Below are positions 134 to 1,307 of a DNA stretch of 2,543 bases, piece by piece. Source of the DNA: Escherichia coli. GTDB lineage: Bacteria; Pseudomonadota; Gammaproteobacteria; Enterobacterales; Enterobacteriaceae. The notes beneath the pieces are model-generated. The model was given only the letters and a program-made list of their open reading frames with translations, did not search any database and had not been told where the DNA came from. The stretch's first letter is position 1, and each line of letters opens with the position of its first letter. The DNA lies in assembly GCF_024298765.1 (NCBI RefSeq), contig NZ_CP101218.1. One strand, 5' to 3'. The position numbers were made by a program, and so were the translations under genes.

Positions 134-559
134 ATGACTAAAAATAAACGTAGTGGTTCAGAAGTACGGCAGAGAACTAAGGTTATCACCCTTAGAGTAA
201 ATAACAGAGTCGCAAGCGAAATCAGACGGCGAGCGAAGAACGAAGGACTGACAATTTCAGAATATATCAGGACGGCAAGTTTAAATAATGAAATAAAACA
301 GCGCGTACCTTCCAGGTATTTAGATGAATTAATCCGACTTGGTCGGATGCAGAAGAAATTATTTGATAAGGGAAAGCGGCCGAAGGATAAGGAGTACCTC
401 GAGGTGATGCATAAAATAATTTTACTTTGCGATGAAATGAAAATAGTAACGAAGCGAATTTCTGATGTATATAATGAAATGGATTTAATAAAGGATGAAA
501 TAAAAATAATAAAAAGGATACATAAAGATAAATATCCAGGTTCGGATTTATTCAAATAA
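134..559 (+). CDS. mobC: Ribbon-helix-helix DNA-binding protein, MobC/MbeC-like plasmid mobilization accessory protein (141 aa). The frame is open to the window start, so alternative starts at ATG 23, TTG 11 or off-window cannot be excluded.
   Basis: ORF track frame 11..559. ATG at 134 is preceded by GGAGAG with a 9-nt spacer. The N-terminal basic tail followed by RTKVITLRVNNRVASEIRRRAKNEGLTISEYIRTASLN fits the RHH beta-strand/helix/helix pattern (R-x-I-x-L-R-V ... G-L-T-I-S-E-Y-I-R) typical of MobC-type relaxosome accessory proteins; the C-terminal half is charged and helical. TAA stop at 557-559. Confidence 0.6.
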   Translation: MTKNKRSGSEVRQRTKVITLRVNNRVASEIRRRAKNEGLTISEYIRTASLNNEIKQRVPSRYLDELIRLGRMQKKLFDKGKRPKDKEYLEVMHKIILLCDEMKIVTKRISDVYNEMDLIKDEIKIIKRIHKDKYPGSDLFK

Positions 560-562
560 ACA

Positions 563-590
563 AATAAGGTCTTTTAAAAAAGACCTTATT
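563..590. terminator. Bidirectional intrinsic-terminator-like hairpin between the convergent mobC and repL genes
   Basis: Perfect inverted repeat AATAAGGTCTTTT (563-575) / AAAAGACCTTATT (578-590) with a 2-nt centre, A/T-rich runs on both sides, starting 4 nt after the mobC stop. Confidence 0.6.
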
Positions 591-618
591 TAGATGTGCA
601 TTATTTTATTTCTTCGGT

Positions 619-627
619 TGTTATAAT
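619..627 (+). promoter_or_regulatory. Extended -10 promoter-like element (TGtTATAAT) pointing toward the 3' end of repL (antisense)
   Basis: TG at 619-620 followed by the consensus TATAAT hexamer at 622-627. No good -35, which extended -10 promoters do not require. In AT-rich DNA this could be chance. Confidence 0.25.
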
Positions 628-755
628 AGTTTCACCGTTAGGTGAATATTTAATTCTCATTTCAAACTCTCGACGCTGTTCAATTATTTTTTTCATTCAC
701 CACGAGCAAATAAATTAGGGTTCGCCTGAGCGGACACCGGATAACCCACTTATTC

Positions 756-1307
756 TTAACTAGATTTATCCTCTTGTTTTTCAATTGTATTTTTTCTCTC
801 AATCACAGTTGTAAACGCGATTCTGTCACCATTAAAAACAAAGTTAGGGTTAATGAAATACCTTCCTTGTCGCATTGTTTTTGCAATTATTTTCGCTTTT
901 TCCAATTCATTAAGACCTCGCTTAAAGGTTGCAAGACTTAGTCGTAATGGTTGTTTACTCGCAGAAACTTGGCACTGAAGAAACGCTTCTAAAACTAAGG
1001 TATCCAAATCAACTTCGTCTTTTGAGAGTGCAGAGTTCTGAACGGACCAAACTAAAACACCGAAGGCTTTAATTCCCGCAGAAGATAGCTCAAAAGTTAA
1101 GCCAATATTTGCTGTAAAAAGTTTTACAAACTGTTCGCTATCAACACGTTTATATGTTGTTACGTGAGTACCTTGAACCTCACCTGTGTTCTGATTGACC
1201 AGGATGTTATCATCACGACCTAGACGCGAAAGCCTAACTTGCTTCCCCTTGACAGGTACAACCATTCCTTCTAAAAATGGGTTTTCTTTATAGCGACCGA
1301 AGCTCAT
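756..1307 (-). CDS. repL: Plasmid replication initiator, RepL family (winged-helix DNA-binding), 183 aa
   Basis: ORF track 756..1307 (-). ATG at 1305-1307 on the minus strand is preceded by AGGGGTG (SD-like) with about a 5-nt spacer. The protein carries motifs I recognise from RepL of staphylococcal pSN2-type plasmids and phage P1 RepL: NTGEV near the N-terminus, a central FVKLF...GL segment, and a C-terminal LNELEKAKIIAK...YFINPNFVFNGDRI (compare LKILEEGNIIKRK...LMLNPELLMRGDD). Family assignment is from memory, not a search. Confidence 0.8.
   Translation of the reverse strand: MSFGRYKENPFLEGMVVPVKGKQVRLSRLGRDDNILVNQNTGEVQGTHVTTYKRVDSEQFVKLFTANIGLTFELSSAGIKAFGVLVWSVQNSALSKDEVDLDTLVLEAFLQCQVSASKQPLRLSLATFKRGLNELEKAKIIAKTMRQGRYFINPNFVFNGDRIAFTTVIERKNTIEKQEDKSS

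Follow-up and report, generated by a model that had tools for sequence, protein, structure and literature searches.

Where does transcription end when two genes of a very small plasmid point at each other, and is the palindrome found between them the element that ends it? The question is raised by a 2543-nucleotide stretch of Escherichia coli DNA, the whole of which is referred to here as the window. Positions 2144-2543 followed by 1-729 are collinear, at 98-99.5% identity, with positions 2189-2310 followed by 1-1000 of the plasmid AP026524, and because this collinearity runs across the ends of the window, the window represents a complete circular plasmid of 2543 bp. By its sequence it is a small RepL/NikA E. 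coli replicon of the Col(MG828) type, to which its relatives are assigned in PLSDB. The same backbone (2144-2543 plus 1-729, 98-99.5% identical) is carried by 2.3-kb cryptic plasmids of this type, including AP026524 (pMTY13926_NA4) and NZ_OW967010, whereas the rep/ori module of the window (730 to ~2143) differs from that of the 2310-bp Col(MG828) plasmids and comes from another lineage. The NikA-like gene is named mobA or nikA in the records of these relatives, and the literature found on MG828/RepL consisted only of surveillance papers that list the replicon type. The parental mobA-dyad-repL region is also present in a 2437-bp contig of a Pseudomonas sp. assembly (L015; NZ_JAHBDQ010000059.1), where it is identical to the E. 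coli type across the 171 nt read and would reflect either a wider host range or contamination, and in NZ_CP031857, which is labelled Actinobacillus pleuropneumoniae. Features of the locus are collected in Table 1.

Table 1. Features of the mobA-repL intergenic region of the window, and hairpins found downstream of mobA in related plasmids (positions are those of the window).
Feature	Position	Strand	Sequence or remark
mobA	134..559	+	141 aa, NikA-like ribbon-helix-helix relaxosome accessory protein; Pfam NikA-like, E = 9.5e-17
8-bp imperfect tandem duplication	553..560		window-specific; CAAATAAA beside CAAATAAG
Dyad/hairpin	562..591	both	putative two-way terminator and 3'-end hairpin
Dyad A-tract	562-567		AAATAA
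Dyad left core stem	568-575		GGTCTTTT
Dyad right core stem	578-585		AAAAGACC
Dyad T-tract	586-591		TTATTT
Parental Col(MG828)-type repL 3'-end relic	601..729	-	129 nt; old stop codon 601-603
Extended -10-like motif	619-627	+	TGTTATAAT; inside repL relic, directed away from dyad, antisense to repL
Small hairpin	631..646	+	TTCACCGTTAGGTGAA then TATTTAATTC; terminator-like by pattern only, within relic
Recombination junction/filler	730..766		supplies the present repL stop (756-758) and last few codons
Present repL	756..1307	-	183 aa; RepL-family initiator, Pfam RepL
L008/L009 hairpin			AAACCCTGCTC...GAGCGGGGTTTAT; classical GC-rich terminator
L001/L006 hairpin			TTAGCCGATATATC...GATATATCGGCTAA
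L004/L010 hairpin			AACCCGCC...GACGGGC
L005/L007 hairpin			ATAGGTCTT...AAGACCTAT; only GGTCTT core in common with window

As the first-pass annotation had stated, the palindrome is located between two convergent genes, mobA on the plus strand and repL on the minus strand, and the repL stop codon lies 165 nt from its right arm (591 to 756); the mobA stop, TAA at 557-559, is positioned 2 nt ahead of the left arm. The same annotation described a perfect 28-bp dyad with 13-bp arms at 563-590. Its position was correct, but each arm was drawn one base too short, since AAATAAGGTCTTTT (562-575) and AAAAGACCTTATTT (578-591) are 100% complementary over 14 nt, and the word perfect, which is accurate for the arms, is slightly loose for the whole, because the 2-nt AA spacer at 576-577 is not self-complementary. 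Parental plasmids carry a T at 576, which yields a true 30-bp perfect palindrome, and apart from this central base the dyads of the 2.3-kb Col(MG828) plasmids and of the sibling plasmid pGF4-G are the same as that of the window, which has an A. The stem comprises 13-14 bp and is AU-rich, with only three G-C pairs (GGUC/GACC). In 300 dinucleotide-preserving shuffles of the window, with a spacer limit of 10 nt, the longest perfect inverted repeat did not exceed 12 (mode 7), against observed arms of 14, and when 1-760, which is AT-rich, was shuffled 500 times, the longest was no more than 11. RNA folding of both strands had been proposed as a check, and a stable hairpin forms on each (-13.9 kcal/mol on the plus strand and -14.9 kcal/mol on the minus strand; z = -5.1 and -5.2, respectively), a stability that none of 200 shuffles matched; the core stem alone contributes -6.4 kcal/mol. 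Folded as single-stranded DNA, the dyad reaches -10.9 kcal/mol on the plus strand and -10.7 on the minus strand (z = -5.6 and -5.3).

In the RNA, AAAUAA stands before the core stem GGUCUUUU/AAAAGACC and UUAUUU after it, and the layout is the same when read from either strand; the AAATAA / TTATTT arrangement matches the symmetric layout of bidirectional intrinsic terminators. A terminator pattern scan flagged the minus strand only, with 14 pairs, three of them G-C, and the tail TTTATTTGAA; three G-C pairs is the minimum of that scan, and is weak for E. coli. On this strand the U-tract, UUAUUUGUUUAUUUG, passes the scan; on the plus strand, in the direction of mobA, it is short (UUAUUU, then AGAUG). 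A d'Aubenton-Carafa-type discriminant gave +11 for the minus strand and -8 for the plus strand of the window dyad, and about -9 in both directions for the parental allele. Because this discriminant was run with modern (ViennaRNA) energies, is uncalibrated and returns mostly negative values, it serves as a relative measure only, placing the minus strand of the window above the others. From the repL stop to the dyad the minus strand contains no other terminator-like site, and at E <= 1 none of the Rfam 15 covariance models matched any part of the window.

Taken with the hairpins of related plasmids described below, these features make it likely that the dyad is a bidirectional terminator and 3'-end hairpin common to the convergent mobA and repL units, and we consider it nearly as likely that it would set the 3' ends of both, through a signal that is weak by intrinsic-terminator criteria. 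The first-pass description of an ideal bidirectional terminator therefore survives as the best-supported reading of the element, given its stability on both strands, its A- and T-tracts, the convergent genes and the hairpins in relatives, but not as ideal, as the stem is AU-rich with three G-C pairs and only the minus strand scores positive. According to this model, a polymerase arriving from either side would transcribe an A-tract, the GGUCUUUU/AAAAGACC stem and a U-rich tract, and the nascent hairpin would pause and destabilise the elongation complex; termination would keep transcription of one gene from continuing antisense into its neighbour. As the hairpin is AU-rich and weak, the efficiency of termination would probably be tied to head-on polymerase collisions. 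Single-molecule work on bidirectional terminators of E. coli has shown that weak hairpins between convergent genes act by pausing combined with polymerase collision, the hairpin positioning the head-on collisions, after which trailing polymerases release the complexes (bioRxiv 10.1101/2022.10.23.513370). The hairpin of the window would probably shield the mRNA 3' ends as well.

The strongest argument for a role in termination or at the 3' end is supplied by comparison. DNA downstream of the mobA stop was extracted from ten related plasmids, and a stable hairpin follows the stop directly in all ten, although the hairpin sequences fall into unrelated types (Table 1); in six other lineages the hairpin at this position is unrelated to the window dyad. 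In NZ_CP091537, NZ_CP053244, NZ_CP075636 and NZ_CP075712, for example, stable stem-loops after the mobA stop face a convergent rep-side gene. Some of the hairpins in other lineages are GC-rich classical terminators and others have no U-tract. Their sequences differ entirely from that of the window, with the exception of NZ_CP075712 and NZ_AP022103, in which a GGTCTT/AAGACC core is shared; the L005/L007 type differs from that of the window by a single A:T to T:A double change adjoining the shared GGTC core. A fixed position and a conserved structure combined with turnover of the sequence fit a function in termination or at the 3' end and do not fit a sequence-specific protein site. A scan of genome contigs with the dyad detected no wider family of the sequence: its 22-nt core was found elsewhere only in the same-type plasmid contig labelled Pseudomonas and in a Parvularculaceae metagenome-assembled genome. 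In the latter, an unrelated alphaproteobacterial assembly (L014, 11519-11546), a near-identical hairpin, GTAAGGTCTTTTAAAAAAGACCTTAT, lies at the 3' end of an ORF whose stop falls within the right arm; it looks like an independent occurrence.

Many of the positionally equivalent hairpins are without good U-tracts, and it follows that what is conserved may be a polymerase-pausing 3' hairpin and not a strong, canonical intrinsic terminator. This bears on the first of the alternatives, in which the hairpin is mainly a stabiliser of RNA 3' ends against 3'-to-5' exonucleases, or a pause site, and termination is left to Rho or to collisions. Besides the frequent lack of U-tracts among the equivalents, such an account is favoured by the AU-rich and weak hairpin, by the negative discriminant on the plus strand and in the parental form, and by the published collision model for weak bidirectional terminators (bioRxiv 10.1101/2022.10.23.513370). 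However, a pure stabiliser would not need the symmetric A- and T-tract flanks, and the minus strand satisfies intrinsic-terminator criteria. We regard it as unlikely as a separate explanation, and it largely overlaps with the bidirectional terminator.

The asymmetry of the locus, in which mobA ends beside the dyad and repL ends 165 nt from it, can be traced to a replacement of the rep module. In the parental plasmids of 2310 bp, where mobA runs to 837 and a different repL allele to 871, the palindrome occupies the 33-bp gap between the convergent stops; in AP026524 the left arm of the dyad contains the mobA stop, and 9 nt separate the right arm from the repL stop. Positions 596-729 of the window align almost perfectly to the last ~43 codons of the parental repL, but in the window the frame is disrupted by a 1-bp deletion at 694/695. 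Homology to the parental gene ends at 729/730, and from 767 onward the window shares 88-91% DNA identity with the repL/iteron module of NZ_CP041119, in which another gene follows repL. These alignments show that a foreign rep module replaced the original at ~729/730, leaving behind the original putative terminator together with 129 nt from the end of the old gene. As a consequence of the swap, the new repL must be read through the 165-nt relic before the same putative terminator is reached. The long 3' UTR proposed in the first-pass annotation thus exists as a gap of 165 nt, but 601-729 is the displaced 3' end of another repL, and the gap is on this evidence a scar of the replacement and not a regulatory region. 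That the long gap beside the dyad is such a scar is the result added here.

Small motifs within the relic can be viewed in the same light. The extended -10 element that had been noted on the strand opposite to repL is present at 619-627 on the plus strand, but the promoter scan did not call it; in the parent it corresponds to the repL codons ATT ATA ACA, and its position within former coding sequence is most simply explained as a by-product of AT-rich codons, so that it is probably incidental. An ORF of 31 aa at 601-696 (MKKIIEQRREFEMRIKYSPNGETIITTEEIK) was considered as a small gene and rejected: from KKIIEQ on it matches the parental RepL C-terminus, which ends in KKIIEQRREFEMRIKYSPNGETIITTEEIK, it is thus a frameshifted remnant, and its sole Shine-Dalgarno-like motif abuts the ATG.

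The 8-bp duplication at the end of mobA is found neither in AP026524 nor in the sibling plasmid pGF4-G (L013; NZ_CP172224, 2535 bp, RefSeq). It places the mobA stop outside the stem and its left arm, and it adds to the length of the T-rich tract located beyond the hairpin in the repL direction; the positive discriminant of the minus strand results from this extension of the T-rich run. pGF4-G is the same recombinant as the window, and 13 substitutions and one 8-bp indel separate the two. Apart from the duplication at 553-560, the window has A rather than T at 576 and three changes within 594-598, and the differences near the dyad form a cluster (527, 576, 594, 597 and 598). Twelve of the 13 substitutions, and the indel, fall within 1-598, with a single one (957) in the remaining ~1,945 bp, and this skew suggests that a second and later event, an exchange or conversion involving another Col(MG828) variant, affected the mob module; the right boundary of this event would lie between 598 and 957.

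A further possibility is that the palindrome acts as DNA, a site prone to cruciform formation or slippage and serving as recombination hotspot or module boundary, with the RNA hairpin incidental. Homology of the mob module between lineages does stop at 543-580, at the mobA stop or the left arm, the 8-bp duplication abuts the dyad and the variants relative to pGF4-G cluster at it, and single-stranded DNA of the dyad folds at ~-10.8 kcal/mol (z ~-5.4). The documented rep swap nevertheless avoided the dyad, its left junction at 729/730 being 138 bp off; homology would be expected to fade where a gene ends, as intergenic DNA is less constrained; the variable positions 594-598 are non-coding spacer; and the presence of unrelated hairpins at the equivalent position elsewhere in the family indicates selection for structure. 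That the dyad, besides terminating transcription, is a DNA-level hotspot that marks and promotes exchange of rep and mob modules, with the 8-bp duplication as an adaptive repair that restores efficient termination for the new repL, is quite improbable, and a palindrome acting purely as DNA is more improbable still.

Least probable of all is the alternative that had also been offered for the dyad, a protein-binding site, whether operator or accessory, for a dimeric protein such as the ribbon-helix-helix MobA/NikA, RepL or a host factor. The perfect two-fold symmetry of the arms would suit one, and the plasmid encodes both a ribbon-helix-helix protein and a winged-helix Rep. A search of the whole plasmid allowing up to three mismatches, however, recovered half-sites at the level of chance (4 matches versus 4.0 expected, the two extra ones carrying 3 mismatches each), and on this basis a model of an operator or iterated site was dropped. 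Furthermore, the dyad sits at the 3' ends of genes and not at a promoter, in the oriT-like region (20-106) or among the iterons (1375-1510); the iterons, TTGAGCTACSGTAG, and the oriT-like region are unrelated to it in sequence; and it was retained when repL was swapped for an allele with different iterons. Although mobA DNA is 76-90% identical among lineages, the hairpin sequences are entirely different, and lineages with homologous MobA conserve no common site. The suggestion of a protein-binding site is therefore not upheld. A XerCD/cer-like site just right of the dyad (L003, GGTGCGCATTA) was rejected, as there is no match to a XerD arm and the parental sequence extends from the spacer into the repL end. 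The dyad was also considered as a single-strand origin, a reading rejected by inference, known single-strand origins being far larger than its one 30-nt hairpin.

Other regions of the plasmid deserve brief description. The inverted repeat GTATTCG...CGAATAC and the motif CCTGTCAGGGCAAGCCCCGACACCCC are found at 20-106, and this region, probably an I-complex-type oriT, is ~77% identical to unannotated DNA that in conjugative plasmids of the I-complex, for example IncK2/Z NZ_CP126939, lies just upstream of nikA/mobA and a MOBP relaxase. As a NikA-like gene is present and a relaxase is not, transfer would depend on a co-resident I-complex plasmid; relatives have been typed as non-mobilizable by MOB-suite. 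Upstream of repL are iteron-like direct repeats, TTGAGCTAC(G/C)GTAG, at 1375-1389, 1397-1411 and 1498-1509, two of them 22 bp apart, which presumably represent the RepL binding sites of the origin. The promoter scan returned fewer sites overall than expected by chance, and its sole sigma-70-like match (1249-1278 on the plus strand; TTGACA, an 18-nt spacer and AAAAAT) lies on the strand opposite to repL, within the 5' end of that gene, and is directed across its start codon; from this predicted promoter a countertranscript to the repL leader could be made, for control of copy number. Finally, a GC-rich segment of ~310 bp (1693-2003; ~60% GC) has counterparts at 85-93% identity in more than 600 plasmids, including many tiny replicons of 1.5 kb, and almost none of these plasmids carries an annotated feature there. 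ORFs in it, such as 1629-2012, resemble GC-rich artefacts, and the segment could be a conserved non-coding element, for instance an origin, a priming site or a second oriT.

The dyad provides a plausible transcription boundary in a family of tiny E. coli plasmids that is very common and whose database records give coding genes only. If the terminator is as weak as scored, mobA transcripts that read through would lie antisense to repL, with a possible effect on copy number. Elements of this kind are well known and the plasmid family is well sampled; the dyad is an ordinary example, and beyond annotation it matters little.

Among characterized systems, the putative terminator of the window most resembles the bidirectional intrinsic terminators of convergent E. 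coli gene pairs, for example ynaJ-uspE, known from SEnd-seq work (Wang et al., bioRxiv 10.1101/2022.10.23.513370), in that one palindrome with A-tract and T-tract flanks lies between convergent stop codons. The dyad, like that type, is weak in each direction, and the same sequence of pausing, collision and release would be expected. Unlike the ynaJ-uspE type, the dyad is plasmid-borne and much more AU-rich, with three G-C pairs, and, as a result of the module swap, one of the two genes that it appears to serve now ends 165 nt away.
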